Source: Chiloscyllium plagiosum
Taxonomy: Eukaryota
Assembly (NCBI RefSeq): GCF_004010195.1
Contig: NC_057719.1
Span: 29,916,423 to 29,980,422, forward strand
DNA length: 64,000 bases
Direction of reading: 5' to 3'
Position 1 is the first letter of the stretch; each line of letters starts with the position of its first letter. Under the pieces are notes generated by a model. That model was not told the DNA's origin. It worked only from the letters and a program-made list of their open reading frames with translations, and made no database searches. The translations under genes and the position numbers were made by a program. Shown here one piece after another: positions 3,015-61,031 of this stretch.

Positions 3015-3131
3015 AAACAAAAAAATGCTGACGATCACAGTGGGTCAGAGCTGATGAAGTGTTATCCAAACTCGAAATGTTAGTATCCTCTCTCTCCATG
3101 GATGCTGCCTGACCCGCTGTGATTCCAGCAT
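3015..3131. mobile_element. Degenerate fold-back Penelope-like element with decayed hammerhead motif
   Basis: Inverted arms atgctg..gatcacagtgggtcag / ctgacccgctgtgattccagcat around CTGATGA (3051-3057) and GAAA (3074-3077); stem II is not pairable. Confidence 0.55.
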
Positions 3132-6100
3132 AGAGTCATAGAGATGTACAGCACGGAAACAGACCCTTTGGTCCAACTTGTCCATGCCGACCAGATATTC
3201 CAACGCAATCTAGTCCCATCTGCCAGCACCTGACCCATATCCCTCCAAACCTATTCATAAACCCATTCAGATGCCTGTTAAATGTTGCAATTGTACCAGC
3301 CTCCACCACATCCTCTGGCAGGTCATTCTATACACATACCACCCTCTGCATGAAAAAGGTGCTGCTTAAGTCTCTTTTATATCTTTCCCCTCTCACCCTA
3401 AACCTATGCCCTCTAGTTCTGGACTCCCCGACCCCAGGGAAAAGACTTTATCCTATCCATGACCCTCACGATTTGATAAGGTCACCCCTCAGCCTTCAAT
3501 GCTCCAGGGAAAACAGCCCCAGCATATTCAACCTCTCCCTATAGCTCAAATCCTCCAACCCTGGCAACATCCTTGTAAATCTTTTCTGAACCCTTTCAAG
3601 TTTCACAACATCTTTCTGATAGGATGGAGACCAGAACTGCATGCAATATTCCAACAGTGGCCTAACCACTGTCCTGTACAGGCACAACATGACCTCCCAA
3701 CTCTTGTACTCAATATTCTGACCAATAAAGGAAAGCGCATCAGATGCCTTCTTCACTACCCTATCTATCTGTGACTCTACTTTCAAGGAGCTGTGAAACT
3801 CTACTCCAAGGTCTCTTTGTTCAGCAACACTTTCAAGGACCTTACCATTAAGTGTATAAGTCCTGCTAAGATTTGCATTCCCAAAACGCAGCACCTCTGT
3901 ATCCAGATAGCTAGTTCTCCCTATATTCCATGAGATCTAACCTTGCTATCCAGTCTCCCATGGGGAACCTTGTCGAACGCCTTTCTGAAGTTCATATAAA
4001 TCACATCCACAGCTCTGCCCTCATCAGTCCTCTTTGTTACTTCTTCAAAAAACTCAATCGTTTATGAGACATGATTTCCCATGCACAAAGCCATATTGAC
4101 TATCCCTAATCAGTCCTTGCCTTTTCAAATACATGTGCATCCTGTCCCTCAGGATTCTCGCCAACAAACTGCACACCACCGACATCAGGCTCACTGGTCT
4201 ATAGTTCCCTGGCTTGTCCTTACCACCTTTCTTAAACAGTGGCACCACGTTAGCCAACCTCCAGTCTTCCAGCACCTCATCTGTGACTATCGATAATACA
4301 AATATCTCAGCTCACTTCTGTAGCTTCCCACAGAGTTCTATGGTACACCTGGTCAGGTCCTGGGGATGTATGCACCTTTATATATTTCAAGACATCCAGC
4401 ACTTCCTCCTCTGTAACATGGACATTTTTCAAGATGTCACCATCCCTTTCCCTACATTCTATATCTTCCATGTCCTTTTCCACAGTAAATTCTGATGCAA
4501 AGTACTCATTTAGTATCTCCCCCATCTCCTGCAACTCCACACAAAGGTTGTCTTGCTGATCTTTGAGGGGCCCTATTCTCTCCCTAGTTACCCTTTTTTC
4601 CTTAATTTGTAAAAACCTTTTGGCTTCTCCTTAATTCTATTTGTTAAAGCTATCTCATGTCCCCTTTTTGCCCTCCTGATTTCCCTCCTAAGTATACTTC
4701 TACTGCCTTTATACTCTTCTAAGGATTCACTCAATCTATCCTGTCTACCCCTGACATATGCTTCCTTCTTTTTCTTCACCAAACCCTCAATTTCTTTAGT
4801 CATCCAGCATTCACTATACCTACCAGCCTTTCCTTTCACCCTAACAGGAATATACTTTCTCGGGATTCTTGTTATCCCATTTCTGAAGACTTCGTATTTT
4901 CCAGCCGTCTCTTTACCTGTGAATATCTGCCTCAGTCAGCTTTTGAAAGTTCTTGCCTAATACTGGCAAAATTGGACTTTTCTCCAATTTAGAACTTCAA
5001 CTTTTAGGTCTGGTAAAACCTTCTCCATCACTATTTAAAAACTAATAAAATTATGGTCGCTGGCCCCAAAGTGCTCACCTACTGACACCTCAGTCACCTG
5101 CCCTGCTTATTTCCCAAGAGTAGGTCAAGTTTTGCATCTTCTCTAGTAGGTACATCCACATACTGAATCAGAAAATTTTCTTGTATGCACTTAACAAGTT
5201 TCTCTCCATCTAAACCCTTAACACTCTGGCAGTCCAAGTCTATGTTTGGAAAGTCAAAATCCCCTACCATAACCACCCTACTATTCTTGCAGATAACTGA
5301 GATCGCCTTACAAATTTGTTTCTCAATTTTCCTCTGACAATTTGGGGGTCTATAATACAAGCCCAATAAGGTGATCATCCCTTTCTTATTTCTCAGTTCA
5401 ACTCAAATGACAACCCAAATATCCTCCCTCAGTACAGCTGTAATGCTATCCTTTATCAAAAACGCCACTCCCCCTCCTTTCTTGCCTCCCTTTCTGTCCT
5501 TCCTGTAGTATTTGTATCCTGGAACATTAAGCTACCAGTCCAGTCCATCCCCGAGCCATTTTTCTGTAATTGCTATGATATGCCAGTCCTGTGTTCCTAA
5601 TCATGCCCTGAGTTCATCTGCTTTCCCTGTTCGGCCCCTTGCATTGAAATAAATGCAGTTTAGTTTATCAATCCTACCTTATTCTTTGCTTTGTCCCTAC
5701 TTGCCCTGACTGTTTGACTCACTTCTGTTCTCAACTTACCAGTCTCAGATTGATCTCTTTCCTCACTATTCCCCTGCATCCCCCCCCCCCCCAATCCCCA
5801 CCTTAGTAGTTTAAATCCTCCCGAGCAGCTTTAGCAAATCTCCCTGCCAGTATATTAGTCCCCTTCTAATTCAGGTGTAATCCGTCTTTCTTGTACAGGT
5901 CACTTCTACCCCAAAATAACTTTCAATGATCCAAAAATATGAATCCTTCTCCCGTACATCAGCTCCTCAGCCATGCGTTCATCTGCTCTATCCTCCTCTT
6001 CCTGCCCTCACTCGCTCGTAGCATCAGGAGTAATCCAGTGTTACTACTCTTGAGGACCTCCTTTTTAAATTCCTGCCTAACTCTCTCTATTCTCCCTTCA

Positions 6101-6830
6101 GAATCTTGACCTTTTCCCTTCCTATGTCGTTGGTTCCAATGTGTATAATGATCTCATGCTAACCTTTTTCCCCCTTGAGAACATTCTGCACCTTCTCTGA
6201 GACATCCTTGATCCTGGCATCAGGGAAGCAATGCGCCATTGTGATTTTTCATAGCTGGCAACAGAAATGTCTGTCTGTACCTTGGACTAGAGAGTCCTCT
6301 AACAAAATTGATCTCTTGGAACTCGACGTACCCCTCTCTGCATTAGAGCCAGTCTCAATACCAGGGACTTGGCTGTTCGTGCTACATTCCCCTGAGAATC
6401 CATCCTCCCCTACATTTTCCAAAATAGCATACTTGTATGAAATGGGGATAGCCACAGAAGACTCTGCACTACCTGCCTACTTCTCTTACCTTCCCTAGAG
6501 TTAATCCACCTATATGACTGTATCTGCGACTTTTCTCCCTTCCTATTGCAATCCCTTGATCTTGTAAATTCCTCGTTCCATCTGTCTCTCCAACCAACCC
6601 GTTTGATCTGATAGGATTCACAACCAATGGCATTTATTGCAAATATAATCCTCAGTAACATGTAAACTCTCCCTAAAGTCCCACATCCGACAAGAAGAGC
6701 ATATCACTCTACTAAAGGTCATTTTTGCTTCTTTCAATCTATAGACCCTGAAATTAGCTCTGTCTTATTCCTCTACAAACACTGCTCCAGCGATACATGA
6801 ATTCAAACAGCAAAGGCAGTAGCTGTGCAG
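3132..6830 (-). mobile_element. Near full-length decayed CR1 LINE (HER1-like): ORF1, APE endonuclease, RT with internal deletion, 3' UTR
   Basis: Minus-strand ORF fragments YYRPPN..VMVGDFDFP (APE), WRLANVVPLFKKGGKDKPGNYRPVSL and RPLLEYCMQFWSP (ORF2), ORF1 remnant 6249..6455, CR1-type 3' tail at 3132; many stops and frameshifts. Confidence 0.9.
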
Positions 6831-6857
6831 GTTCACTGCTGTGCAATTAGCAATGTG

Positions 6858-6859
<2 letters not shown>

Positions 6860-6892
<33 letters not shown>
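6860..6892. repeat. (TC)n microsatellite
   Basis: Perfect dinucleotide run. Confidence 0.95.
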
Positions 6893-6897
<5 letters not shown>

Positions 6898-11144: not shown

Positions 11145-12088
11145 CTCCCCTTACCAGTCGTGGCTGCCTTTTTATCCAGCTCTCCCTTCTTCTCTTCCCA
11201 CTGATTTTTGGAGGTGACACTGAAAAGGTCAGCTTGAATTGCTAGGCTTATGGGTGAGCATACAGCTATTATCAGTGACTTTATCATTTATCATTCCACT
11301 TTACCCTGCTGGGCAGTTCTATGAACATCGTTGAATTAAAATGCCATTTTCTTATGTTAGAGTAAGGTATTTTTATTGAGTTAGTTTAATGTATTATACA
11401 AATTAACTTTTCTCTTTTTGGCTTCAAACCATTTATTTTGATTTGTTTCTTTTATTTACATTTTTGATTTCAAATTTCATGTCTTGATTTTTAAGGGTAT
11501 ATGTTAGATTTGAGGCCCAAATCCCATTACAGAACAAAACAATAAATGGATTGTTCAATAAAGAAGAGCTTAAGTACAAAGATAATTATTAATACAGGTT
11601 TATCAATATCCTTGTTTTTAAGATGGAGTCCAAAATTCCAGAGCTGGATTTAGCTCTTTGAAATTTCTTTAGAGGGGAATGAGGCTAGGTGTTGTTGATT
11701 GACTAGCTGGTAGTTAAGGAGTGATGAACTGTTTCTTTTCTTTAGTTTCAAATTTCTTCTGAAGAAAATTGCTAAAATGTAAATTCTCCTTTGCTGTTTT
11801 GATGAAAGAAGGCTGATTAAATACTTAGAAAAGGAGAAATGAGGACTGCAGATGCTGGAGATCAGAGCTGAAAATGTGTTGCTGGAAAAGCGCAGCAAGT
11901 CAGGCAGCATCCAAGAAGCAGGGGAATCGATGTTTCGGGCATGAGCTCTTCTTCAGGAATGAGGAGAGTGTGCCAAGCAGGCTAAGATAAAAGGTAGGGA
12001 GGAGGGACTTGGGGGAGGGGCGTTGGAAATGCGATAGGTGGATGGAGGTTAAGGTGAGGGTGATAGGCCTGAGTGGCACCCTTTCCTC

Positions 12089-12124
12089 ATTCCTGAAGAG
12101 GGGCTCATGCCCGAAACGTCGACT
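12089..12124 (+). ncRNA. Minimal type I hammerhead ribozyme motif (intact core)
   Basis: CUGAAGA 12093-99, stem II GGGC-UCAU-GCCC, GAAA 12113-16, palindromic stem III ACGU, GUC triplet ending 12120; stem I is weak. Confidence 0.75.
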
Positions 12125-12872
12125 CTCCTGCTCCTTGGATGCTGCCCGACCTGCTGCGATTTTCCAGCAACACATTTTCAGCTCCAGTTCTGTGGGATCC
12201 TCCCTGATCTCACTGATTCCTGATAAATCACCAACAATGACTCCACAATTTCCTCAGCTATTCCCTGCTGTAGTCCGTGTGGTCGAGGCAATTTATCCAT
12301 TTTCAGACCTTTTAGCTTCCCCAGACCATTATCCTAAGTGATGGCCACCACCCTCACCTCTGCCCCCGAACTCTCTGTCATGCTGTTGGTATCTTCGATT
12401 CACATTTTCCAGCGATCTAATGTCCACTCTTGCCTGTTCCTTCCTTTGTACACAGTATATCTACAAAAAGCTATTTCCAACCTCCTTTTGTATAACAAGC
12501 TAGCTTACTCTCAGATTTCATCTTCTTCCGTTTATTGATGTTTTAATTATCCTTTGGTGGTTTTCAAAAGCTTCCCAATCCTGTGGCTTCTCAATAATCT
12601 TTACTTTCTATTTGCTTCACCCATAAACATAGACATGTCCACCGAGAAAAACATCAGCATGGAACGTAACGGTGTGTATTTTCAAAAACATATATCTATA
12701 AACGTGAACATTTTTCCTAATCTGCAATCTTCTTCCTGACCTCTCCGCCCCCACCCCCACTCCGGCCTATCACCCTCACCTTAACCTCCTTCCACCTATC
12801 GCATTTCCAATGCCCCTCCCCCAAGTCCCTCCTCCCTACCTTTTATCTTAGCCTGCTTGGCACACTTTCCTC

Positions 12873-12908
12873 TTTTCTGAAGAAGGGCTCATGCCCGAAA
12901 CGTCGATT
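12873..12908 (+). ncRNA. Minimal type I hammerhead ribozyme motif (intact core)
   Basis: CUGAAGA 12877-83, GGGC-UCAU-GCCC, GAAA-CG-UC ending 12904. Confidence 0.72.
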
Positions 12909-15679
12909 CTCCTGCTCCTTGGATGCTGCCTGACCTGCTGCGCTTTTCCAGCAACACATTTTCAGCTCTAAATAGTTGGAAAAAACAAGTACAGGTTGTT
13001 GTTTGCTTTTTACAGGTCAGAAGTTCTTAGCCAGTAGTGAGGGCTTTTGATATGATCAGGCAGTGATTATGAAGAAGCATTGGTGCCTTAACTGACCACT
13101 ATTTCAAAATTGTAAGATTATAAGGCCTTTGTTTTCAATTCTGAGGCTGTGACCAAGACTTTATTTGTTGTGAGGAAATCCGTTACCATTGAGATAAAAG
13201 CTTGCACTGCAGATCAACAACTGTTCATGGCCCCATCCCAGAGGCTAAGCAGAAAGTCATTAATACAGCATCTTACAGGAAAGAAGTAATTTGCAATTCT
13301 GCTGTGTATGGCCTTTTCCTGGAGACCATGTGTCTTTGTGGCCATTTATAACATAATATTTAGCATTCCAGTTCCATCAGGAAGTGCATGAAGCATTGAT
13401 TGTCTAGCTGACTCTTGTTTCTGAGAAGCATCTGGAAGGCTACTGCTAAGTCTAGTCATGTGAGTATAGCATCTATGTTTGAATTTTTAATAATTTTATA
13501 ACAGTGACTAAATAAATATAGACATGCATTAAAGTGAGTTCCTCATCCTTTTGTGGCAGTATGGAAATACTACCTCAAAATTACTGATGCTGACTAGATT
13601 TTTTACAATGGAAAGTGATAAGTCTATTTGAAAAACATTTCCCAATTAAGTTAAATATGTTAATTGACAGCGGAATAAATAGAAAGTGTTTTTTTTAGAA
13701 AATACTGTAGCAGGAAAGATGATATAGCAGCTTTCAAGTAAATTATTAATTTACATTTTTGAGGTCACTTCTAAGATATTATAGGAGATGCTATTTTCTT
13801 CTTGTAGAAGGTCTCACAACAGCAGCACAGCTTACTTAGTAACTTGACTCATATAATGTTCTCATTTATTTTTCAAGAGTTCAGTAGATTAACATTTTTT
13901 ATTCTCGAGTCTGGGAATCTACACTGTTTCTGTGGTAATATAATGGCATTTTAAGACTGTTGGCTTCTACTGTCAATGGAGAGTAACTTTGGGTGAAATG
14001 TGCAGTCTAATTTGAGAGACCAATCCAATATAAGACTCCTCGCAATGAGAACCCCTGGTTGTTTGTGTTCACACCAATTTGTGTTCACCCTGGCTGCAAT
14101 CTAACTACAACCCTGTGAAAGCCATATTTTGAGGATGACTGGGTAATTCCTTTTGAAGATTTTCACCTTCAGTCCAAAAGCAGTTTGCCCCCATAATATT
14201 AAAAGTTAATGCATTAGTAACATTTACTTGATTGATATATTTCCATATTCCAAGTTAACTATGCAGTGTGTGGCCATTTAAAATTAGAAGTATAACACTA
14301 AGAATATTCTGTTCTTTTATGAGACACTATGATTGGCCAGTATATAAATTCATATTTTTCAGTCCTGAATAAACAAATTGTCACAAATGATTGCATGGTC
14401 TTTGTAGTACTGGAAACATCATTTACTGTGAAATAGGAACAGGAATGGCCTATTTCAACTACTGCCTATGTCTGCAATGATCCTGCTAAAAGTAAGTGGA
14501 TTCCGGTTAACAGTTCTTGCTTTGTTCTTTTATCTTTCCTTAATTTTCTTCATTCTTATTGTTCATGTCAAGTTCATGTCTGATGAAATATTGACCACTT
14601 CAGGAATTTCACCATTATTGTCAGTGATGAAATTTCTCTACCAACCTCATCAAGAAATATGTAATATTATGTTCCTAAATGCAGCCTCACCTCTTACTCA
14701 TCTTTTGCTTATTGCCTGTTGTCCACTGGTGATAATATCAATATTTACAAAGGTTAACTTACAATGTGTATTCATTGAATATAACAACACTTTGAACTTG
14801 CTTATTTGCTAGTTCTTTTCAAATGTTTTGTTGTTTGCATTGTTTCTTTGTAATGAACAATTCTTCCTAACACTTGATGAGCAGAAATAATTCAAAACTA
14901 ATTCTAGCTTTGTACTTAAAATATGACAGTCTTCTATGACCACTCTTTGATTGTTTGAACACCATCTTGGCAGCAAAGATCGAATACTAAATACGTACCA
15001 CTGTAAGCATAATCGGTTTGGTTCTAATTCATGTCTGATGTCTTGCCACAGTCATTCAAACGTAATGTGACACAGGATTGAATAAAAAAACATGGCACTT
15101 GATGGTGTAGAGAGTTAGAACACTGTCCACACGTGGTAAATTTGCCTGCAGCTATTATTATAGTACATTACCTAGGTCCAAGGCTTTAAATTTACATTCA
15201 TCTAAATATTACTTCACCTGTATGCAGAGAACCTCAGTTATCCGAACGAGGTGAGTGGGCACTATTTCGTTTGGATAATTGATTATTTGGTTAATTGATT
15301 TCCTCCGGGGCTCAGAGTTTTCTGTGACGTCTGCTCCCCATTCAGGAGACTACGCAATAGCACACCGCACGCGAGATCCCACCCCCCGTCCACTCCCCAA
15401 CCCCTTCCGCTCCCACCCTGCCACCCTGTCCACCCCCACGCACCGTCTGACCCCGTCCTTGCCCCTGTGTCCCTGGGGAAAAAGTGATGAGCTGTCCAGA
15501 GTAAGTGTGTAGGAGACATAGAGGCCATGCATGGTTAGTAGCATGGAGGAATTAGGCGTGTGGGAGTGAGAAAGGATGTTGCACTGAATAGTGAGAATGG
15601 TAGAGCATGGATCTTGGTGCCGGAGCAGAAATAGTAAGTGTGAGTTAACAAAGAGAAGAAGATGGTATTTATCAATGAC

Positions 15680-16050: not shown

Positions 16051-16065
16051 GTAGGTTGTCAATGA

Positions 16066-16250
16066 GGAGAAAGTGAGGACTGCAGATGCTGCAGATCTGA
16101 GTTGAGAGTGTGGTGCTGGAGAAGCACAGCAAGCCAAGCAGCATCCGAGGAGCAGGAGAATTGACATTTCGGGCATAAGCCCTCCATCAGGAATGAGGAG
16201 CCTCATTCCTGATGAAGGCCTTATGCCCGAAACGTCTATTCTTCTGCACC
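16066..16250. mobile_element. Fold-back Penelope-like element with hammerhead motifs on both strands
   Basis: Hairpin centre gaatgagg-ag-cctcattc (16191-16208); + core CUGAUGA 16209-15..GAAACGUC 16229-36; minus core mutated to CUGAUGG; flanks taggttgtcaatga (16052-65) / taggtagttaatga (16251-64). Confidence 0.8.
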
Positions 16251-16464
16251 TAGGTAGTTAATGAAGTATGTTTGGAACAATAGCGTGAAACATTCACTAG
16301 GCCTCGTGGAGAGAAGACTCCTAAACTAAAATGACACTTTTGTCAAAATATTGTAAGATTCAACCCAGCAGGTCTGGACTGGTAAAATTTAGTAAGTTAC
16401 ACAGAGCAGCATGTTTTCCAGAAATGTGTCTTGCTTAAAGAGACCTGAGCTAAGATGGATTTTT

Positions 16465-20320: not shown

Positions 20321-21490
20321 CATTACTTTATTATCCAGATTTTTAAGACATACAATAAAGGATTAATGCACTTTTTATGCCAAAACTGTGACAAAGAGTG
20401 TTTTTCCAATTCTGGTCAGCCCTAACTTGTCATCAACATGCATATATATTGTAGGTCTCTGTTAAACTAACTAAAAATATCGGTAAGTAAAACCAGAAGT
20501 GTACTATAAGAACCATCTCTTATTAATATCAGTGATGAAGAGCAGTGTTTTTGATGAGAAACACCATTCCAATGTATATGTACAATGGAGACCAAGGAAA
20601 GAAAGCAAAACAGTATTCATTTCACTTTAAGATTTGATGGTATTGGGAAATGAGGAGAAGGTGTAATCAAGAAAGGATGGAATAGGTTGCTGTAAGATGA
20701 TCTCATTAAAATGAAGAAATAAAGATTAGATATCAGGAAGAAAATGAAAGTTTGAACCTAAAGAAAAATAAATACAGCAGGAACATTAGAAAAGTAATTA
20801 GGTTAATGTTCTTCCCTTATTGTGTGGTTAATAATTTTAATAATGTAAATAATAAAATTACAGATCATGAAATTTCAGTAGCTGGCAAGTCAAACACTTG
20901 AAGTACTGTATCAAACATTTTGGATTTGGCAAGGCTGTCTATATAATGAAAAGGTTTCTGTAATGCATATCACAATTAACTATGTAGATAACAGTTAAAT
21001 ATATTCTGCATTACTGTGCCCTTTTACTATCTAAAACATGCTGTAAAGTGTTAGGATGTTCTCCAGTGACAATTACCTTTTGTAATTGTGCTATTTATTG
21101 TTGCATGCCCTCTTCTTGATTTTAATTATGCATTTTAAACTTATGTATTGCCTTCAATAAAACAGTATTATAACAATATTTCCTTTAATATGAAGACTGA
21201 TTTCTAACACATACCGTTACTAGTTTTGAAATCGGTTAAGGACAAAATTGGCCTTCATTCTAAAGAAGCTCGCTGTTGTATCAATAGTTTCTTACGCCTG
21301 TGCTTCATTATTGATGCTACTGCTTCAATTTACTTGTGTGAATCTTGCTGTAAAGGAGAATACCTTCAATGAACTGTTAGTACACAACCTCACATAAACC
21401 ATTTGGACAAATTACAGTATTGGATTAAATGCAGAATTAAGAGCTAAAATCACAATTATCATTGTTCCATCTTTCTCATTTTCTTTTTAG

Positions 21491-22165
21491 AAGTTACAGA
21501 AGGATCACTTGTTAGCTCAACAGGTTTGGAAGAGTATAGTCCAGAGATTGGCACAACAAGACAAGTTCTAAGCTTTGAGTCTCACGGTATGACCAGCTCA
21601 GATTTCGGAATAGAGATGGTACCAGGGGATTCTATTGACTTGGCCAAAGCTTTGGTGGACCCTGTTGGGGCAGAGAAGACAGAATTCCAAAACTACATTG
21701 ATATGTGTCATTCAGAAGAATCGAAAGTTCAGGAGTTATCCAAGATGCACTGGGAAGAGAAAATGTCTTTCCTAGATGACACATCAGCTGACATAGAAGC
21801 CTTCCCAGAAGCTCCGAAAAAGTCAGTTGAGGAGATAAAATTGATAGAAGAAATGAGCCCTTGTCTGAGTCCTGAGGAATCAACGACTGCACCATATGTG
21901 GAAGAGCCTTCAGATGAAGACATTTCAGAGAAATGGGAAATGGAGGACACCCAGCACAACGTTCACACAGTGGATACATGTGCATCACCAGCCCATGTTT
22001 TGCTTACTGAGCTAGAAACCATAGTAGATCCCAATAGCAGGTGCAAGTCTCAGCGTGAACAAGACATGAAACCAAAACAAGGATCCGATGTAGTGCCAAC
22101 TGTGACTGTATCAGAGCCAGATGATGACAGCCCAATCTCCCAAACGCCTACTCCCTCAAGCTCAG
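21491..22165 (+). CDS. RTN1: Reticulon-1A-like internal coding exon (equivalent to RTN1 exon 2), 675 bp, phase 1-1
   Basis: Polypyrimidine tract + tag acceptor at 21490; donor cag|gtaac at 22165/6; open frame with ESHGMTSSDFGIEM, EESTTAPYVEE, PAHVLLTELE and VPTVTVSEPDDDSP..PSSSG, matching RTN1-A motifs recalled from human (SSDSGIEM, EESTFAPY, VPTVTVSEPEDDSP). Confidence 0.85.
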
Positions 22166-23189
22166 GTAACAAATGTTATGTGAGTTACTCTAAAAAGTTG
22201 GCAGTGTGCATACACACCATTCCAAAATTTTCTTTGTTTGTTGAACTAGAGTAATTGTTTGGTGTGTGTGTGTGTTTCTCTATGTTGATATTCTGTTTAA
22301 CTTGAACATCTTTCATTTTCCCTTTTACCTGGCTTGTTTTTGGAAAAAAGTTGAACATTTGTAAATATTTGGCTTTAATGTAACTTACCATGATATTTCT
22401 GTTCCTTATTTGACCATCCTATTTATATAGCTGGGTGGTTTCACCATCAAGAAAGAAAATGAAATGGCATAAAAATGGTCACTGAAAGCACAGTATGAAA
22501 GGACACAAAAAAAATGTGAAATTTAAATGAAAAACTATGCATCCCTGTCCTTGCTCACACAAGTCCACCGTGATTGATGCATGTTTAATCGATGCAAACC
22601 GATTTTTAAAATGCATGTTGTCTATCTCAGTCAGGTAACTTCCACTGTTCCTTTCTTAGTCTTTTTCATGTTTTTTTTCATGCTTCCACTTTATTTAAAA
22701 AAAAATAAAATTGAATAATGAAAAAAACTGCCTCTTTCTTTCTCTTTCTCTCTTTACTTGTCTTATTTTCTCTTCTCTTTGACTCATAAATGTTAAAAAT
22801 TAGAGATGATTTTAATGTACCAGGCTAGTTAAAACTGCACAGGTGACTTAACCACTTTTGACCATATTTTTTAATGCAGACGTCTTGACAGATTTACTTT
22901 AATCTAGTGGTTTGTCACTTAATTTCTATTGAATTAATATTAACTCTGCCAACCGCTAGTTACTGATTCTGTTTTTGGATTACCAGCAAAAAAAAGTTAC
23001 TCTTCAGGACTCAGCAAGGATAGTTCTTGTTAAAAAGTCTGTGATCAGATACCCACCTTTAAATAAAAACATTAAAATTTAGGTCAGTGATGATAGGCAC
23101 ACTCATTTATACCTGCATGTTTTCCCTGTATGAATTTGTGTTGAAGATCCTTTATCACTGAGTGGTCTAAAAAGACAACATTTTGTTGA

Positions 23190-24530: not shown

Positions 24531-24791
24531 TTCTAATTTGTGTTTTTTTTATAAGTTACTGTGCCAGTTAAATTTTAGATGTACCATGTTTTCTACAACA
24601 GAGAAGAGTGCACCTCAAAATTGGTTGACCTTTTACAACCTCAACCAATTGAATAGTGCTTTTTATTTAGTGTTAATAAGATTGTATTTCCAACATACTC
24701 CAGAAACTCTCTGAATTTAAATTTTCAATTAAATTTGGCGAACAAACCTTCCTCATGGTAATATAGCTTTGCTACACCTTTTATGTGTCGC

Positions 24792-41643: not shown

Positions 41644-41837
41644 AGTTAAAAAATCACAAAACACCAGGTTATAGTCCAACAGGTTTATTGAAGGACAACC
41701 TGATGAAGGACAACACCTGATGAAGGAGCAACACTCCAAAAGCTAGTGCTTCCAAATAAACCCGTTGGACTATAACTTGGTGTTGTGTGATTTTAAACTT
41801 TGTACACCCAAGTCCAACATCGGCATTTCCAAATTAC
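41644..41837. mobile_element. Fold-back Penelope-like element (family B) with duplicated, inactivated hammerhead
   Basis: Inverted arms; CTGATGAAGGA occurs twice (41700, 41717); GAAA changed to AAAA; TSD aaaatccag (41635-43 / 41838-46). Confidence 0.82.
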
Positions 41838-41896
41838 AAAATCCAGCCCATTGTAACTCTTACTTCCACCCGTATTGGGAAGAATCAGTAGTTTAT

Positions 41897-42492: not shown

Positions 42493-43260
42493 TATCCATA
42501 TTTTATTGCGTGCTGTTAATCTGTAGCAGGAGTCCCCTGCTCTTTAATCTTCAATGACCACTTAAGAGTATTCCATAATTTTGACATATATCAAGTTTTA
42601 AAATAAATATGCTCAGTAGTTTGCATTTCACTAACTTTCACCAACAGATCTGTGTTCAGAATTAGAATTCATATGTTAAGAGAGCTGTGTGTCTCAGATC
42701 TTTCATAGATATCAGGGCAATGCTTAAAAGACAGACAGATAGTGGAAGAGCAAAGTGTGTCGGTGCAGGCTTGGAAGTTTGAAAGGCCTGTTCCTGTGCT
42801 ATAATGTTCTTTGCACTGACCCTTCATTGCATACAGTTCTGGTCACCACATTACAAAAAAAATGTGGATGCTTTGGAGAGGGTACAGAAAAGGTTTACTA
42901 GGGTGTTGCCTGGTATGGCGGATTCGAGCTATGAAGAAAGATGGATAGACTGCATTTGTTTTCACTGGAATACAGGAGGTTGAGGCGTGATCTGATAGAA
43001 GTTTTTCAGATTGTGAATGGCATGGATAGAGTGGAAAGTATGAGGCTTTTCCCCAGGTGGAGGAGTCAGTTACTCGGGGATACAAAGGGCGAGGACGAAA
43101 TTCAAGAGAGATGTGCGAGGCATGTTTTTCACACAAAGGGTGGTGAGTTCCTGAAAAGTGTTGCCAGAGGAGGTGTTGGAAGCAGACACAATAGCAGCAT
43201 TCAAGAAACACCCAAACGTACAAGAATAGGAAGAGAATAGAGGGATATGGATCCTCTGAA

Positions 43261-43572
43261 TTGGAGATGCCGGTTTTAGACTGGGGTGTACAAAGTTAAA
43301 AATCACACAACACCAGATTATAGTCCAACAGGTTTATTTGGAAGCACTAGCTTTGGGAGCGCTACTCCTTCATCAGGTGGTTGTGGAGTATAAGAGCATA
43401 AGACGCAGAATTTATAGCAAACGTTTACAGTGTGATGTAAACTTTTGCTATAAATTCTGCGTCTTATGATCTTATACTCCATAACCACCTGATGAAGGAG
43501 AAATGCTCCGAAAGCTAGTGCTTTCAAATACACCTGTTGGACTATAACCTGGTGTTGTGTGATTTTTAACCC
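43261..43572. mobile_element. Fold-back Penelope-like element (family B) with hammerhead motifs on both strands
   Basis: Arms about 43296-43422 / 43444-43570; perfect 13-bp TSD tggatcctctgaa (43248-60 / 43573-85); minus core has GAAA changed to CAAA. Confidence 0.9.
43486..43520 (+). ncRNA. Minimal type I hammerhead ribozyme motif (intact)
   Basis: Stem I CAC/GUG, CUGAUGA 43489-95, GGAG-aaaug-CUCC, GAAA 43510-13, GC-UA ending 43517. Confidence 0.75.
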
Positions 43573-44543
43573 TGGATCCTCTGAAGAGAGTTTTAATATG
43601 GAAAGGCAAAATGTATTGGCACAGCCTGTTCCTGTGCTGTATTGTTCTTAGTTCTTTTTGTTCCTTGAACATCCCCATAGGACGCTGGAAAATACAGTCA
43701 TGGAGACAATTAGCCAGTAGAAAGCTACCCTCATAGGTAGAACAGGCAGATCTCTAAAATGTTTCTCCTCTAATCAAAGGCTGGTTCTCTCTAGCATTTG
43801 CTGCTGGTAAGTTGATAGTGAACCTGCGTGCAGCAAATATGGTAAAGAAGAAGCCTATGCTTTGGAGAAGCATGGAGAAAGTGACTCGTGGCTGTGAGAA
43901 AGGCTGTCAGCCTGAGAGGTGTGGGGATGGTAGCAGGCTATGCAATAAAGGTGGGAGCAAGTTTTCCAGGCAAGTGGTGGGGAGGTGTGAGGCTGCTGGA
44001 TCAAAGGGTGGTGGTGGGAAAGCTGAAATAAATGGGGTAGGGAGGGGTATTTCTAAACCTTCCAACAATGAAATACTCTGCTAATTGGGAACCATTAAAT
44101 CTTAGAGGGTCACTGGGATAATGAATTTCTTACAAATGAATGTGGAGTCTCTATCTAAAAGTTGCAGAAGTTCAGGAGCTACTATACAGGAGAAAATGTA
44201 TTGGATGCCATTGTGATTAACACTGCAGCAATTGTCATTTGAGAGTACGGAGCTGGAGTACTTTGAAGATTTTTGTATTTCACATATCAGGACAATTTGC
44301 ATATATCCCACCACAAGGAGAAAATCTACATCAATACTGCACGAGAGGAGAGTGCTGATTGGTTTGCAGTTGACCCCTGATTAATCATGGCATTGCCCTC
44401 AGAAATGAACCAGTGATTGGCTCTCACTTATTTTGTTGAGTTGAAACAGGCGCAGTGCATATACTTGTTAATGTATCGACTGGATATTTTAACACTGAAT
44501 AATTATAATTAATGAAAATTTGCATTTATAACATTATATGTTA

Positions 44544-44849
44544 TTAGATTAGATTACATTACAGTGTGGAAACAGGCCCTTCGGCCCAACAAGTCCACAC
44601 TGACCCACCGAAGCGCAATCCACCCATACCCCTACATTTACCCTTTACCTAACACTACGGGCAATTTAGCATGGCCAATTCACCTAACCTGCACATCTTT
44701 GGACTGTGGACCGGAGCACCCGGAGGAAACCCACGCAGACACGGGGAGAACGTGCAAACTCCACACAGTCAGTCGCCTGAGGCGGGAATTGAACCCGGGT
44801 CTCAGGCGCTGTGAGGCAACAGTGCTATCCACTGTGTCACTGTGCCGCC
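44544..44849 (-). mobile_element. HE1 V-SINE (young-looking copy)
   Basis: Same head, V-domain and tail as 34822-35134, CpG-rich, (taatc)n tail. Confidence 0.9.
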
Positions 44850-44900
44850 CACATCTCAAAGCATCTCATCACTGTGAGTTCTTTGAAGTGCAGTTAGTGA

Positions 44901-45272
44901 CTAGCCACGAAACGACACGACCAGCTATCCTTAGTAGCCACACACGCAGATGACAAGCAACATGAGTTTGACTGGGACAACACTACTATTATAGGACAAG
45001 CCAAACAGAGAACAGCCAGGGAATTCTTAGAGGCATGGCACTCATCCACTGATTCAATCAACAAGCACATCGACCTGGACCCAATATACCAGCCATTGCA
45101 GCGGACAGCTGGAACTGACAACCGGAAGCGGCAGGTTCAAACCACTACAAATGCCAGAGGAAAGATCACAGAAGCACTTCACAGGAGGCTCCCGAGCACT
45201 GAGGATGTCACCTAGACAGGGGACGAAACGTCTGCAACACAAATTCCCAGCTCGGCGAACAGAACCACAACA
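44901..45272 (+). mobile_element. 3' end of a Penelope-like element: endonuclease C-terminal ORF remnant plus pseudo-LTR
   Basis: Uninterrupted frame 44901-45215: LATKRHDQLSLVATHADDKQHEFDWDNTTIIGQAKQRTAREFLEAWHS..INKHIDLDPIYQPL, the pattern that follows GIY-YIG in PLEs; no ATG, so it is absent from the ORF track. Confidence 0.85.
45196..45235 (+). ncRNA. Minimal type I hammerhead ribozyme motif (family C)
   Basis: Stem I GCA/UGC, CUGAGGA 45199-205, stem II GUC-A-CCU(AGAC)AGG-G-GAC, GAAA 45225-28, CG-UC ending 45232. Confidence 0.8.
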
Positions 45273-46149: not shown

Positions 46150-46855
46150 ATTCAGCATGGAAACAGACCTTCCCATCCAACTCGTTCATGCTGACCATAA
46201 TCTCACCTAAACTAGTCCCACCCGGCTGTGTATGGCCCATATCCCTCCAAACATTTCTTATGCATGTACATATCCAAATGTCTTTTAAACATAACTGTCC
46301 TTGCAACACCACTTCCTCTGGAAGTTCATTCCATACTTGAATCATTCCATACTTGAAATGTCCCTTGTGTCTTTCTAAAATCTTTCTCCTCTCATCTTTA
46401 ATAATATGCCCCAAAGTCTTGAAATTTCCCACCATAGAGAATAGACACCTGTCATTCACATTATCTAAGCCCATCATGATTTTATAAACCTCTAAGGTCA
46501 CCCCTTAATTCCGTATGCTCCAGTGAAAAATGTCCCAGCCTATCCAGTTTCTGCTTGTAACTCAAACCTTCCATTCCTGGCAATGTCCTAATAAATCCCT
46601 TCTGAATCCTCTCCAGCTTAATAATATCATTCCTATAACAGGGCAACCAGAACTGGGAATACTGTACTCCAGGAGAGGCCTCACCAATGTCCTGTACAAC
46701 CTCTACATGACATCCCGACTCCTATACACAGGTCAGAGCAGTGAAGTCAAGCATGCTAAGCGCTGCCTTAATCACTCTGTCTACATGTGAAGCAAATGTC
46801 AAACAATTATGTACCTGAGCCCCTATGTCTCTCTGTTCCACAACCTACCCAAGGT
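46150..46855 (-). mobile_element. CR1 3' fragment
   Basis: EVYKIMMGLDNVN..VWNELPEEVV and a CR1-type 3' UTR. Confidence 0.8.
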
Positions 46856-48300: not shown

Positions 48301-49609
48301 AGAAAAAATGTCATGAAACTGAAACTTACACTGAAAGAAAATAATAAGATCGAACCCTAGGACCCTGGGTGAATAACGCCACAGTCAGGAGTGTATTGGA
48401 ATACATACCTGGATAAAGACAACTTCAACAACACTCAAGAAGTTCGATACAACCCAGGACAAAGAAGCCAGTTGATTGGCACCCTATTACTACTTTGGAT
48501 ATTCACTCTCTTCACTGGTTGTAGATGATACACACTGCTGACAAGGTTCATCATTGTCTCCCAACACTGATCATGATCGACTGGTCCATCCAAGGATTTC
48601 TGACCATTTAACTTCACTGTCCACTATGTTCCCTCACTGCACACACATCAATTGTCATGTTGTAGGATGTCCACTTCCAGAAGTTGCACGAGTAGACAAA
48701 TGTGCATGCTGCTAACAGGCTTGGCCTATTTGTTGAATGATGCTTTAGCTAGTCTATTTGGATGAATCATTTTTATTTATTTATTCACTCATGAAATGTG
48801 GGTGGTGCTAGCTGTGCCAATATTTATTGCACATCCCTAGTTGCCGTTGAGATGGTAGTGAGCTACTTTCTTGAACTGCAATAGTCCCTTTGGTGTAGGT
48901 AAACCCATAATGCTGTTTCGGAGAGAATTCCAAGATTTGATCCAGCAATACTGAATAATGGTGATGTATTTCCAAATCAGGATGGAAAGTGGCTTGCAGG
49001 GGAACTTGGATGTGGTAGTATTCCCATTTATCTGATTCTATTGTCCTTCTAGATGGTAGTGGTCATGGGTTGGGAAGGTGCTGTCTATGGAGCATTGGAG
49101 AATATATGCAGTGCCCATTGCTGCAACTGAGCATCCTTAATGCAGGAAGTGAATATTTATGGATATAGTACCAATCAAACGGGCTACATTGTCCTTGATG
49201 GTGTCACATGTTTGGAGTATGGTTTCAGCTGCACACTCCTGACTTGTGCCTTGTAGTTGGTGGACAGTTTTTTGAGAGTCAGGAGGTGAATTATTCATTA
49301 CAGAATTCCTAGCCTCTGACTTGCTCCTGTAGCCTCTGTATTTATATGGCCAGTCCAGTTCAGCTTCTGATCAATGGTAACCTCCAGGATGTTGGTAGTG
49401 CAGAATACATTCATGGTAAAGGCATCGGATGTCAAAGGGCAGTGGTTAAATTCTCTCTTATTGGAGATGGTCTTTGCCTGAATATTGCTTGCCACATGTC
49501 AGTATAAACCAAGATACAGTCCAGGTCTTGTTGCATTTGACTGCTTCATTATCCAAAACGTTGTAAACAATGCTGAATTTTGTGCAGTCATCAGTGAACA
49601 TCCCTACTT

Positions 49610-50465
49610 TTAGAGTCATAGGGTCCTATAGCATGGAGACACACCCTTCAGCCCAAACTGTCCATGTCGACCAAAATGTCCATCCACGCTACCCCCATTT
49701 CCCTGCATTTGGCCCATATCCTTCTAAATCTTGCCTATCCATGTATTTGTACAAATGCCTTTTAAATGTTGTTAATGTACCAGCCTCAACCACTCTATAT
49801 GGCGGCTCATTCTATATGCACACCACCCTCTGTGTTAAAAAAAGTTGCCCCTCAGGTTTCTTTTTATTCTTTCCCTTCTAACTGTAAACCAGTGCTCTAG
49901 TCCTCACTTCCCCACCCTGGAAAAAAGACTGATTTTAATCACCCTATCCATTCCTCTCATGATCTTGTACACTTCTATAAGATCCTCCCTCCATCTCCTA
50001 CGCTGTAAAGAAAAAAGTCCCAGCTTGTCCAACCTCTCCCTATAACTCAGACTGTTGAGTCCTGGCAACACCCTTGTAAATTTCTTCTGCACTCTTTCCA
50101 GTTTAATAACATCCTTCCTATAGCAAGGTGACCAAAACTGAACACAATACTCCATGTGCGGCCTCACCAACATCCTGTACAGCTACAGCATAGCTTTCCA
50201 CCTTCTCTACTCAGTGTCCTGACTGATGAAGGCCAGTGTGCCGAAAGCATTCTTCACTGTCCTGTCTGACTGTGATTCCACTTTCAGAGAACCGTGCATC
50301 TGAACTCTTAAGGTCCCTCTGTTCCACTCCTTAAGGCCCTACCATTCACCATGAAACTGCTGCCTTGATTTGACTTTACAAAATGCAAGACCTCACACTT
50401 ATCTATATTAAACTCCATTTGCCATTTCTTGGCTTATTTACCCAGCTGATCCAAGTGCTGCTGTG
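49610..50465 (-). mobile_element. CR1 3' fragment
   Basis: ORF 49904..50173 LVRPHMEYCVQFWSPCYRKDVIKLERVQKKFTR; tail tagagtcata. Confidence 0.88.
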
Positions 50466-50614: not shown

Positions 50615-50929
50615 GTTAGATTAGAGTGGTGCTGGAAAAGCACAGCAGGTCAGGCAGCAACCGAGGAGCAGGAAAATCGACATTTCGGACAAAAGCCCTT
50701 CATCAGGAATAGAGGCAGGGAGCCTCCAGAGTGGAGAGATAAATGGGGGGGTGGGGCTGGGGAGAAGGTAGCAAGGAGTACAATAGATGAATGGGGATGG
50801 GGATGGAGGTGATAAGTCAGAGGGGAGGGTGGAGCGGATCGGTGGGAAGGGATATTGGCAGGTAGGACAGGTCATGAGGACAGTGCTGAGCTGGAAGGTT
50901 GGAACTGAGGTAAGGTGGGGGGAGGGGAA
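50615..50929 (-). mobile_element. Penelope-like pseudo-LTR fragment with minus-strand hammerhead motif
   Basis: Minus strand CUGAUGA-a-GGGC-UUUU-GUCC-GAAA-UG-UC at about 50679-50706 (stems carry transitions). Confidence 0.8.
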
Positions 50930-51840
50930 CTTTTTGCCAAGTATCACTCCAACCAGCAGGCAGTTTTCTATCCTCAATCCCACGGATTTCAGTTTTGCTA
51001 GGATTCATTTATGTCATATTTGATCAAATGCAGTTTGATGTCAAGGGCAGCTGTTCTCATCTCACCTCTGGAATTCAGCTGTTTTGTCCATGTTTGAACC
51101 AAGGCTAGAATGAAGTAAGGAGCTGAATAGCCCTAGTGGAACCCAAACTGGGTGTCAGTGAATATATTATTGATAAGAAAGTGCTGTTTGATGGCATTGT
51201 TAATGATTGCTTCACCGACATTTGAGAGTGGACTAAAGTGGCATTAACTGGCTAGGTTTGGATTTGTCCTGCTTTTTATGTAGAGGACATACCTGGACCA
51301 TATTTTTAGGTAGATCCTAGTGTTGCAGCTTGGGTTGCAGGGTGAAGTAGGTTTTGTGATGCTAATGTAAACGAATAAGAAATATACCGTGAATTGATAT
51401 GTAAAATCAACATATTACAGTATGAGGGATAAAGGACGCTACTCAGCCCATTATCACAATGCTTACATTCTGCTTGTTGCCACAATTCGATCAGCCGTGA
51501 GATTATTGAATGGAGAAGAGACTTGAGGGCTGAATGGCCCATTTGTGTCTACATTTCTAATGTACCTCTCAGAATATTTTAATTCAGTTATCATGAGGAA
51601 TTGGTTCCGCATCGTGAACAAACTACAGAAAAGGGACCCAGTGCTCCTAATCAGGTAAAGTAAATATTGTGTCTCAGTCTCAGTAGTTTGAGAATCTGGA
51701 AGAAACAATTCCATATAATCTATCATTCACCATGTTCAAAACATCACTGTGCATCTGTGGCAGCAACTAAGACTGTCCTGGAGGCCAGATGAAATGCATT
51801 TGAGTGGATTTTAAGGCTGTGATGCTGCTAATTTAGATGG

Positions 51841-51941
51841 GAGGCTTATGCCCGAAAGAAGGGCTTATGCCCGAAACATCGATTCTCCTATTCCTTGGAT
51901 GCTGCCTGACCTGCTGCGCTTTTCCAGCAACACATTTTCAG
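51841..51941 (+). mobile_element. 101-bp Penelope-like insertion with duplicated hammerhead stem II
   Basis: Perfect 15-bp TSD tgctaatttagatgg (51826-40 / 51942-56); ggcttatgcccgaaa occurs twice in tandem; CUGA core missing. Confidence 0.85.
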
Positions 51942-52164
51942 TGCTAATTTAGATGGTAAATTTTGTGAATTCAGCTCACTGACCCAGTGCTGGACAGAGT
52001 CTTTTGCTACAATAATATCCAATCAGATTACAGCACCTAGCCATGAAATATCAATCTAAAAACTTTGAATTTTAACTTTTAATTTTAGGGATGTGCATTC
52101 TACTGCTTACCATTTTCACCACAGTTTCCTTCATCAGAGTCTTCTGCATTGCATGATAGATACA

Positions 52165-53003
52165 TATAGAGTCAAAGAAATATACATCATGGAAACAGAC
52201 CCTTCGGTCCAACCTGTCCATGCCGACCAGATATCTAAACCCAATCTAGTCCCACCTGCCAGCACCCAGCCCATATCCCTTCAAACCCTTCCTATTCATA
52301 TACCCATCCAAATGCCTCCACCACATCCTCTGGCAGCTCATTCCATACACGTACCACCCTCTGAATGAAAAAGTTGCCCCTTAGGTCTCTTTTATATCTT
52401 TCCCNNNNNNNNNNCTAGGAAGGAGACCAGAATTGCATGCAATATTCCAACAGTGGCTTAACCAATGTCATGTACAGCCGCAACATGACCTCCCAACTCC
52501 TGTACTCAATACTCTGATCAATAAAAGAAAGCATACCAAACACCTTCTTCGATAGCCTATCTACCTGTGACTCCACTTTCAAGGAGCTATGAACCTGCAC
52601 TCCAGGGTCTCTTTGTTCAGCAACACTCATTGGGACCTTACCATTAAGTGTATAAGTCCTGCTAAGATTTGCTTTCCCAAAATGCAGCACCTCGCATTTA
52701 TCTGAATTGAACTCCATCTGCCACTTCTCAGCCCATTGGCCCATCTGGTCCAGATCCTGTTGTAATCTGAGGTAACCCTCTTCACTGTCCATTACACCTC
52801 CAATTTTGGTGTCATCTGCAAACTTACTAACTGTACCTCTTATGCTCACATCAAATTCATTTATGTAAATGACAAAAAGTAGAGGACCCAGCACCGATCC
52901 TTGTGGCACTCTACTGGTCACAGGCCTCCAGTCTGGAAAACAACCCTCCACCACCACCACCTTTGAGCCTACCTTTGAGCCAGTTCTGTATCCAAATGGC
53001 TAG
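52165..53003 (-). mobile_element. CR1 3' fragment spanning an assembly gap
   Basis: ORF 52415..52960 VPQGSVLGPLLFVIYIN..SKFADDTKIGG. Confidence 0.92.
52405..52414. other. Assembly gap (10 N)
   Basis: Run of n; comparison with the other CR1 copies shows that more than 10 bp is missing. Confidence 0.98.
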
Positions 53004-59340: not shown

Positions 59341-59882
59341 TGTGACAATGCTGCTCCTTTTAACAAGGTTGTGTTGTCCTTGGGTTTTTTTTCCAGAGAG
59401 CTTGTAAAAGGCACAGATTCTGAAAAGTCTAAGTGGATGGGTTTTAGGGCCAGTTGATTATAGCTAACAGATACCACCTCAAGCATCAAGCTTTTAAGTT
59501 TTGAAAGAACGCTTGTACAATGAAAAGGGAGTGACCATTTCTCCCAGCTTTTCTCTAATTTGGTTGGGTTCTTTAGCAGTAGCATTCTGAAGCTGCTGGA
59601 TCCAAAGAAGCAAGTCCAGTATGGTTCTCTCTCTCTCTCTCACTCTCTCTCTCTCTCTCTGACTTCTCTTCTATAAGACCCTGTGTTTGCTTTTTCCTTT
59701 TGAGCCAAGGGCTGTTTATGGGGATTGTTGCAAGTATTTGGAACAGCATCATTCGGTTGGGATGATCTGTTGGGTTTTCAGGTAGATTAAGTTATTCAGT
59801 ATTCAGTTCTCTTTTGTTTGTGTTTCATTCAGTAATCTTCTAAATAAATTCTATTTTGTTTAAGATGACATGGTATGACCAA
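59341..59882 (+). repeat. 3' LTR, truncated at its 3' end, with (TC)n expansion
   Basis: Aligns to the 5' LTR up to about ..tgaccaa; preceded by purine-rich aaaggcggggtggt; microsatellite at about 59625-59660. Confidence 0.88.
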
Positions 59883-59884
59883 TG

Positions 59885-60695
59885 GACTTCAACAGGACAC
59901 CTACCTCAGACTCCTCTTTATTACCTTTAGTTCAGCCTTCAAAACCGTAATTTCAACCAGCCCCATCTCCAAACTCTGAGATCTCAGACTCTGCTCCCTC
60001 CTCTGCAACTGATTCCTCGACTTCCTGACCCGCAGACCGTAATCAGTAAGGATAGGTAACAACACCTCCTCCACACTCACCTTCAACAGCAGTTCCCCAC
60101 AAGGCGATGTACTCAGCCCCTGGTCTCATACACTCACAGCTGTGTGGCCAAATTCAGCTCCAACTCCATTTACAGATTTGCTAATGACGTCACCGTGGTG
60201 GGTTGGATCTCAAACAACAACAAGACAGAGTGCAAGAAAGAGACAGAGAGCTTAATGGCATGGTGTAAAGATAACAATCTCTCCCTCACCATCAGTAAAA
60301 CAAAGGAGCTGGTCATTGACTTCAGGAAGTGGGGTGGAAGCCATACCCTGTCTGTATCAATGGGGCTGAGGTGGAGATGGCCGAGAGCTTCAAGTTCCTC
60401 GGAGCAGACATCACCAATGATCTATCCTGGTCCATACACTTCAACGCTACAGCCTCGAAAGCACACCAATGGGTCTACTTGCTCAGAAGGCGAAGGAAAT
60501 TCAACATGTTTGCAAAGACTCTTCCATTTTGTTGTAGATGCACCACAGAAAGCATCCTATCAGGATGCATCACTGCTTGGTACGGCCAAGACTACAAGAA
60601 ATTCCAGAGAGTTGTGAATGTAGCCCAGTCCATCACCCAAACCAGCCTTCCATCCATTGACTCCACCTACACTTCCCACTGCCTCAGGAAAGCAG
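59885..60695 (+). mobile_element. Rex1/Babar-like LINE RT fragment
   Basis: SLCN*FLDFLTRRP*SVRIGNNTSSTLT, RFANDVTVVG, SKTKELVIDFR, FKFLGADI, ESILSGCITAWYG. Confidence 0.8.
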
Positions 60696-60699
60696 ACAT

Positions 60700-61031
60700 T
60701 ACCAACTTTTCTCAGTCCCAACCCTCAGACTCAGCACCACCTTCTCGACCTGCAATCTTCTTCCCAACCTCTCCTCCCCCACCTCCTCTCCAGCCTATCA
60801 CCCTCACCTAAACCTCCTTCCACCTATCGCATTCCCAACACCCTTCCCCCAAGTCTCTCCTCCCTATCTTTTATCTTAGCCTGCTTGGCATACCCTCCTC
60901 ATTCCTGAAGAAGGGCTTCTGCCCGAAACGTCGATTCTCCTGTTCCTTGGATGCTGCCTGACCTGCTGCGCTTTTCCAGCAACACATTTTTAAGCTCTGA
61001 TCTCCAGCATCAGCAGTCCTCACTTTCTCCT
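60700..61031 (+). mobile_element. Penelope-like pseudo-LTR with intact hammerhead motif
   Basis: Same family as 12721-12968; CUGAAGA 60905-11, GGGC-UUCU-GCCC, GAAA-CG-UC ending 60932. Confidence 0.82.

Follow-up and report, generated by a model that had tools for sequence, protein, structure and literature searches.

What are the small fold-back units with hammerhead ribozyme motifs that are scattered through one stretch of the bamboo shark genome? The stretch (here called the window) comprises 64,000 nucleotides of Chiloscyllium plagiosum, positions 29,916,423 to 29,980,422 of contig NC_057719.1 (assembly GCF_004010195.1), and window coordinates count from its first letter. An earlier note on this DNA sorted the motifs into three families, A, B, and C, and offered two alternatives: truncation and inversion products of Penelope-like element (PLE) integration, or a non-autonomous, ribozyme-processed palindromic class mobilized in trans. 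Our results favor the first. Units of all three families are almost certainly derived from autonomous PLEs, as 3' ends that are truncated at 5' and often inverted. The pattern itself is real and belongs to a known class; the part worth following is a hotspot of 5' ends in families A and B that lies in a promoter-like setting.

Penelope-like origin of the units

We compared the 30 best loci per 3' end (A, B, and C), the window's own copy among them, across the 3.56-Gb genome (101,977 contigs). Within each family the 3' end is common to all copies and the 5' ends vary, and in all three families longer copies enter open reading frames (ORFs) for reverse transcriptase (RT) and GIY-YIG endonuclease, as the first alternative would have it. 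The 3' ends are bimodal in A, B, and C, and the inverted arm often stops ~35 nt short of the 3' end. Family A copies L028, L012, and L023 extend into RT, a CxxxxCxxC linker, and GIY-YIG sequence, with Pfam matches to RVT_1 (E = 1 × 10−5) and GIY-YIG (E = 5 × 10−4). In family B, L234 and L239 have the layout pseudo-long terminal repeat (pLTR), ATG, ORF, pLTR; the 3' end of the stubs coincides with the start codon, and L236 matches RVT_1 above the Pfam cut-off. For the family C ORF (query L232:3861-4781), about 40 of the 41 matches listed carry the RT domain PF00078, PF26215 is also present, and 2 carry GIY-YIG PF01541. Most relatives among these matches come from Spirometra/Sparganum tapeworms (38 to 46% identity), a bias that probably reflects which genomes annotate PLE ORFs. 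The C copy in the window (44901-45212) encodes 104 amino acids that share 95% identity with the C-terminal endonuclease region of another, longer copy; not all of the units are therefore non-coding. The C stop codon sits inside hammerhead stem II (window 45199-45232), and the catalytic CUGANGA is also protein-coding.

Insertion structure points the same way. A 30- to 40-bp tail at one end with an adjacent inverted, 5'-truncated copy, the arrangement by which PLEs are recognized, was found. Exact target-site duplications (TSDs) of at least 8 bp flank 66 of 207 A, 21 of 57 B, and 3 of 29 C insertions, versus ~1% of shuffled pairs. Direct pLTR repeats or pLTR-ORF junctions occur in B (L234, L239, and L050) and in A (L005 and L220); none of the 22 family C ends examined has a pLTR-ORF junction. 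No single intact ORF was present among the copies read, all being broken or partly N, and a PDB sequence search returned nothing for the C ORF and one match for the B RT (E = 0.81). At L234:3880-4078, a full-length family B element has its 5' pLTR interrupted by a family A fold-back that lies beside a short tandem duplication.

The linker motif reads CNRKKCKTC in A and CHGRRCKTC in B, and C has none. By the linker criterion for the Neptune clade (PMC8557442), A and B are provisionally classed as Neptune-type and C as Poseidon-type. One preprint found only Neptune and Poseidon among vertebrates (bioRxiv 10.64898/2026.07.22.740005). A search of the open literature, with subscription papers, Repbase, and Dfam outside its scope, found neither these shark families nor the breakpoint hotspot described. 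The units as a class are known PLE debris; as far as that search shows, the shark families are new members of it.

Hammerhead motifs in the window and the genome

The motifs have the features of minimal type I hammerheads: a CUGANGA/GAAA/UH core, an extra nucleotide, stem II, a palindromic stem III, and a short stem I. A scan of the window with a strict core pattern (CUGANGA-N-stem II-GAAA) gave 9 matches, against a mean of 0.32 and a maximum of 1 in 50 shuffles, and the UH cleavage triplet is present in 8 of the 9. The core at 50223, which has no UH and lies inside a different repeat, was rejected. With a relaxed family scan, 16 cores were counted (10 A, 5 B, and 1 C), close to the "about 15" first reported. 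Stem II pairing, said to be kept in every family, is kept in general; in family C, stem II has an A-G mismatch after 3 pairs. Rfam hammerhead families gave no match in the window at gathering score or at E ≤ 10, only microRNA-like hairpin noise; minimal motifs lack stem III. Minimum-energy folds of four window copies contained no hammerhead dimer, a measure that is uninformative for an unpaired core.

Genome-wide, ~120,000 exact cores were found (87,506 A, 20,157 B, and 12,054 C), and reversed core patterns, used as a control, gave 0 matches. We also drew a blind sample of 140 10-kb stretches from contigs C1 to C29 minus C10 (1.34 Mb without N). The insertions in it number 217 for A, 57 for B, and 29 for C, a density of 226 per Mb, so the window is typical of the genome; by this estimate the genome carries 0.8 million insertions, and ~4.6% of the sampled DNA is covered. 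UH follows 99 of the 110 strict cores in the sample, and 64 of those 99 have the stem III palindrome. All catalytic bases are retained in about half of the A cores (81 of 156) and in 19 of the 48 B cores, with losses clustering at CpG and along the core's 5' margin. Stem I pairs over 1.7 to 2.7 bp within the three main groups and mostly over 0 to 1 bp between groups, with stem II and the palindrome kept; this within-family pairing fits a predicted hammerhead that was selected in the parent elements. The genome has several more hammerhead families besides A, B, and C, among them diverged Poseidon-like ones with other stem I and stem II sequences (L108:520-626, L132:9440-9549, L151:6039-6150, and L166:9651-9764).

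A hotspot of 5' ends in a promoter-like setting

Where do the arms stop? Arm positions are numbered from the C of CUGANGA, which is 0. Among the arms of the blind sample that reach +9, 121 of 168 in A and 37 of 60 in B have their 5' end between -10 and +9 (arms close to the edge of a stretch or to N are omitted). The hazard of stopping is 0.06 to 0.12 per nt there versus 0.003 to 0.01 elsewhere, about tenfold. The hotspot persists in abutting fold-backs (70/80 A; 21/25 B) and in solo copies bounded by TSDs (9/11 A; 3/3 B), and because long and short arms stop there alike, it is tied to position and not to arm length. Contigs derived from the reads of a DNA-like sequencing run list several joints at -9 to +2 of B, weak support that is independent of the assembly. 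A candidate hotspot at -2 in family C was rejected as an alignment limit, as diverged copies continue upstream with shared sequence. At the cleavage site there is no 5'-end peak: 9 A arms end at +27 to +30, level with neighboring bins. A small B excess at +31 to +35 was rejected as a cleavage peak, since it tracks a 2-nt indel between subfamilies.

Sequence around the hotspot resembles a promoter, as judged by the TATA and initiator consensus motifs and the rule that ~30 nt separate them. In family B, TATAAA stands at -36 to -40 in 15 of 17 copies and is the sole TATAWA in the 755-nt 3' untranslated region; 16 copies have an initiator-like A at -8/-9, which in 14 lies 28 to 32 nt from TATAAA across a spacer whose sequence diverges. 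Family A has an initiator-like A at -4 in 44 of 52 copies and TTATCY at -34 to -36 in 40. Farther downstream, A(A/T)TAAA occurs at +38 to +40 in 15 of 17 B copies, and in a poly(A) single-cell RNA run, 379 and 460 reads run on as A-tails after +57 and +60 of B. The source of these reads may be few loci, host mRNAs, or related species. No poly(A) signal was found in A. In L239 the poly(A) signal of B lies at 79-99, within the pLTR, with these hundreds of A-tailed reads just downstream; host genes may be supplied with poly(A) sites by B stubs.

The two arms of a fold-back are not independent. One tailed and one untailed arm make up 54 of 58 two-arm A fold-backs and 28 of 28 in B (82/86), against the 50% expected by chance pairing. 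At polymorphic sites, too, the two arms of a fold-back match more often than arms in shuffled pairs (A, 0.87 versus 0.58; B, 0.74 versus 0.58). Both findings suggest that two priming events were coordinated, on a single RNA or a single source locus; self-priming of one complementary DNA (cDNA) may also produce such pairs.

A model for the short stubs

Fixed 3' ends, continuity with the ORFs, TSDs, the pile-up of 5' ends, the pairing of tailed with untailed arms, and the subfamily agreement of arms are direct observations, and from them we infer a mechanism. We consider it likely that the stubs are 3'-end truncations of PLEs and that the short A and B stubs are cDNAs that ran off at a predicted transcription start 5' of the core; on the run-off step taken separately, we lean only slightly in favor. 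Transcription would begin at a promoter in the upstream pLTR (in B, TATAAA at -38/-40 with the initiator-like A at -8; in A, the initiator-like A at -4). The endonuclease would make a staggered cut of about 8 to 17 bp, and an RT dimer, working on a single uncleaved RNA, would use both nicks as primers; the two start sites would lie ~35 nt from each other (A, +90/+126; B, +86/+121). If priming took place at the 5' pLTR-ORF junction, both cDNAs would hit the RNA 5' end after 90 to 130 nt. They would then anneal to each other through 2 to 10 nt of microhomology, giving a fold-back, or join target DNA, giving a solo stub. The hammerhead would be carried along in the stubs and not used to make them, and the stubs would be dead ends. 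Parts of this scheme have precedents: in vitro, an anole PLE nicks and extends both DNA strands from two start sites, one on each side of the tail, depends on the first 172 nt of its ORF, takes uncleaved RNA as template, and is predicted to form a dimer (PMC11167929), and Drosophila Penelope has a promoter in the upstream pLTR, the regeneration of which was called unexplained (PMC2377424).

Could the shark Neptune pLTR act as a true LTR, ordered U3-R-U5? We regard this extension as doubtful, though possible. In B, transcripts would start at -8 and be polyadenylated at +57/+60; the RT start sites at +86/+121 would for that reason be present only at the RNA 5' end. A target-primed "strong-stop" cDNA would jump through the hammerhead-bearing R repeat to the RNA 3' end and copy the ORF, and a second jump would rebuild the upstream promoter, yielding partial tandems of the kind that PLEs typically form. 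Jumps that failed would then have left the several hundred thousand stubs and fold-backs, and the palindromic hammerhead may pair two RNA ends rather than cut the template. Strand transfer through an R segment fits the order of motifs in B.

Several observations weigh against the PLE run-off model. Pfam searches found no domain in 6 of 7 fragments of one set and in 2 of 4 of another. Family C has no hotspot. Some 23 A arms reach -5 to -9, past the predicted start at -4, and A lacks a TATA box, with TTATCT at -34 to -36 instead. The initiator-like ATTC of A also forms one strand (5') of stem I, which gives another reason for it to be conserved. Short near-palindromes at the hotspot, TTC-CT-GAA in A and ATCA-CC-TGAT in B, could add to it. 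In B, the two arms are nearer each other than to 90% of other arms in only 3 of 16 fold-backs. Finally, no RNA 5' end was observed; the single RNA run with reads, the poly(A) single-cell library, has a peak of neither starts nor ends.

The main rival is a hammerhead stall. The same PLE truncations would be made from RNAs starting farther upstream, and the hotspot would mark an RT stall or protein footprint at the folded hammerhead, aided by the near-palindromes, with no transcription start involved. We judge this unlikely, but it has real points in its favor: in A as in B, the hotspot falls on the core's 5' edge and contains the near-palindrome of the family, junctions recur at other palindromes (for example, TTACA/TGTAA near 43435), and the anole hammerhead is protein-assisted (PMC11167929). 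However, TSD-bounded solo copies, which are free of arm-to-arm annealing, end there too; family C bears the same kind of hammerhead and is spared; equally good palindromes elsewhere, stem II included, are much weaker break points; and a stall leaves the TATA-initiator spacing of B unexplained.

Recurrent junctions and replication as a unit

A second rival holds that the units are non-autonomous palindromic or SINE-like (short interspersed element-like) mini-elements that replicate as such and are mobilized in trans by PLE protein. Short insertions do predominate, with 184 of 217 A and 50 of 57 B (84 to 88%) at 300 nt or less, and non-autonomous PLE derivatives are described in the available literature. 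Identical fold-back junctions at many loci had been proposed as the sign of a replicating family. Such junctions do recur, and their recurrence does not carry that meaning: a family A junction occurs 650 times genome-wide and a family B junction 47 times.

The 650-copy A junction lies at TTC-CT-GAA. Among 20 of its loci that were read, the tail stands now on one arm and now on the other, several subfamilies are represented, TSDs are mostly 13 to 17 bp, and there is no N; mutation rates are similar in both arms, no asymmetry is common to the loci, and 3 loci have private variants in both arms. Because the tail changes arms, subfamilies differ, and variants are private to loci in both arms, this junction is formed anew at each locus and not inherited.

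The 47-copy B junction is the one near 27956 in the window, and a 35-nt arm variant found 9 times genome-wide stands beside it in 9 of 9 cases. Among 40 loci read, an N run lies within 300 nt on the junction side in 25 and on the other side in 0, compared with 1 in 100 ordinary fold-backs. The N runs begin at recurring offsets, and past them the element often runs on in its original direction. Private changes are a third as frequent in the junction-side arm as in the other (13/3438 versus 64/5399; P = 5 × 10−5), and it is mostly on this mutation asymmetry that we read the junction as probably an assembly artifact, a filling of gaps with reads from one or few real loci. A point against this reading is that the gap is often spanned in ~200 nt less than simple continuity would require. 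The N-run bias and the asymmetry also led us to reject a fold-back inherited from a replicating master, and they indicate collapsed reads in place of insertions; the center of window unit 27723-28139 was probably mis-filled. Junction-recurrence tests on gapped assemblies can thus mimic a replicating palindrome. As for the other window junctions, of 40 candidates scored for the A junction at 12075, one is closely related over the full span, and the B junction at 43435 recurs loosely in several diverged copies at the natural palindrome TTACA/TGTAA.

With the A junction re-formed per locus, the B junction probably a product of collapsed reads, no pile-up of arm ends where cleavage would occur, and the stem II variants common in family A present in long copies too, the second alternative of the earlier note finds little room, and a replicating mini-element is improbable. 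Least probable of all is that self-cleavage defines the template, with cleaved or circularized pLTR RNAs reverse transcribed in the manner of retrozymes: the hammerhead fold is conserved across unrelated families, and cleavage with circularization has been proposed for PLEs (PMC4209133), but most arms span the predicted cleavage site with no excess of 5' ends at it, the units are head-to-head and not tandem, and hammerhead mutants have no effect on insertion in vitro (PMC11167929).

Units and neighboring features of the window

The inverted-repeat arms of the units, described in the earlier note, are borne out; of its nine TSDs, six are exact at 8 to 15 bp, and the other three (24098/24250, 33382/33569, and 16052/~16253) are 12- to 15-bp pairs with 1 to 3 mismatches, judged by eye.

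Two family A units belong to the hotspot class: a fold-back at 16065-16254, both arms of which start at -9 (TSD imperfect), and a tailed solo stub at 32483-32626 (plus strand) that starts at about -3 right after an 8-bp TSD. Two further A fold-backs lie at 11832-12184 (tailed minus arm, -120 to +126; plus arm, -26 to +91; intact core at 12093; no TSD found) and at 31478-31698 (+6 to +91 and +14 to +113; 15-bp TSD; core truncated). The other A copies comprise a solo 3' end without tail at 12714-12969 (plus strand, core at 12877), a solo copy of an older subfamily at 50626-50929 (minus strand, core at 50706), a stub with a short internal duplication and a 15-bp TSD at 51826-51956 (plus strand), and a tailed solo copy at 60702-61031 (plus strand) that extends back to the last ORF codons and has an intact core at 60905.

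Family B is represented by four fold-backs. The one at 27717-28153 has a 14-bp TSD (27717/28140), a core at 28013, TATAAA at 27975, and the initiator-like A at 28005; that at 43248-43585 (-64 to +121 and -53 to +83) has a 13-bp TSD, a core at 43489, and TATAAA at 43449; that at 41635-41846 (+30 to +87 and -8 to +117) has a 9-bp TSD. The fourth, at 24105-24245, is joined 3' of the core and has no complete hammerhead, its TSD showing one mismatch. A complete core is thus lost in the fold-backs at 24105 and 31490. The single C unit, a Penelope/Poseidon-type 3' end at 44901-45272 (plus strand), contains the last 104 ORF codons, with the core from 45199 and the stop TAG at 45213-45215. A decayed copy of a related family with a broken core (3040-3135, plus strand) and a fold-back of yet another repeat family, also decayed, whose 3' motif is related (33382-33582, TSD with one mismatch) complete the set.

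At 26814-27674 lies a frame with 96% identity to Chiloscyllium punctatum reticulon-1a (RTN1a), and on that match the window is assigned to the RTN1a gene of the bamboo shark. This host exon occupies a stop-to-stop frame on the plus strand, with the neighboring elements outside it; a second long acidic frame at 21448-22254 (plus strand) is probably a further RTN1a exon. Minus-strand fragments of an abundant RT family resembling long interspersed elements (LINEs), which we take to be CR1-like, lie at 3094-5634, 37177-39928, 46150-46844, 49605-50464, and 52161-53003. A SINE-sized dispersed repeat of ~300 nt has three copies (24779-25116, 34811-35137, and 44549-44851), and the family C copy at 44901 sits directly after the third.

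Comparison with known systems

How do the shark units compare with what is known of PLEs? They resemble published insertions of endonuclease-positive PLEs (Craig et al. 2021, PMC8557442; Arkhipova et al. 2013, PMC3846280) in their head-to-head arms, 30- to 40-bp tail at one end, TSDs of 8 to 10 bp or more, microhomology junctions, and hammerhead in the pLTR, and a TATA box with initiator, as in shark B, was noted in one rotifer pLTR. They differ in very high copy number and in being mostly 90- to 130-nt stubs that end at one site; the breakpoint hotspot and the strict pairing of tailed with untailed arms have no counterpart in the available portions of those papers.

Metazoan PLE hammerheads (Cervera and de la Pena 2014, PMC4209133) share with the shark motifs the extra nucleotide before stem II, the G-C closing pair, the palindromic 15.2-16.2, and the short stem I. 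In that work, single motifs and opposite-strand pairs 100 to 700 bp apart were already assigned to truncated PLEs; its available portions make no mention of sharks. The ~120,000 exact cores of the shark compare with ~4,000 in coelacanth and ~9,000 in Xenopus, counted there with the authors' own descriptor; the axolotl has 126,247 canonical hammerheads (PMC7229834).

The Anolis Poseidon element PAc (Frangieh et al. 2024, PMC11167929) is like the shark elements in having two RT start sites that bound the tail, extension of both strands, an uncleaved template, and a pLTR end that adjoins or overlaps the ORF start. In the shark, by comparison, the A and B ORFs start at or after the tail and the C ORF stops inside stem II. 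The main text of that paper does not discuss where the 5' ends of genomic copies fall.

Non-LTR retrozymes (PMC7229834; bioRxiv 10.64898/2026.07.22.740005) are also PLE-derived, hammerhead-bearing, short, and non-coding, and have been reported in one chondrichthyan. They form head-to-tail tandems, whereas the shark units in the window and among sampled copies are dispersed, solo or head-to-head, and flanked by TSDs; no head-to-tail tandem of hammerhead units was found in either set.

The genome therefore offers a large natural record of PLE integration products. How PLEs regenerate the pLTR and form tandem and inverted structures has been stated to be open (PMC2377424, PMC8557442), and the question becomes directly testable through the hotspot, the strict pairing of arms, and the motifs found here (TATA-initiator and poly(A)). 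Break points piling up at a predicted transcription start would hint at how PLEs are copied.

Retroviruses provide the last comparison, through the U3-R-U5 order of their LTRs and their minus-strand strong-stop DNA. The terminal repeat of family B shows the same order of TATA, predicted start, poly(A) signal with A-tail site, and RT start sites. It differs from the retroviral LTR in that B is target-primed, with no transfer RNA primer, and has a GIY-YIG endonuclease and no integrase, and in that strand transfer in B is only inferred.

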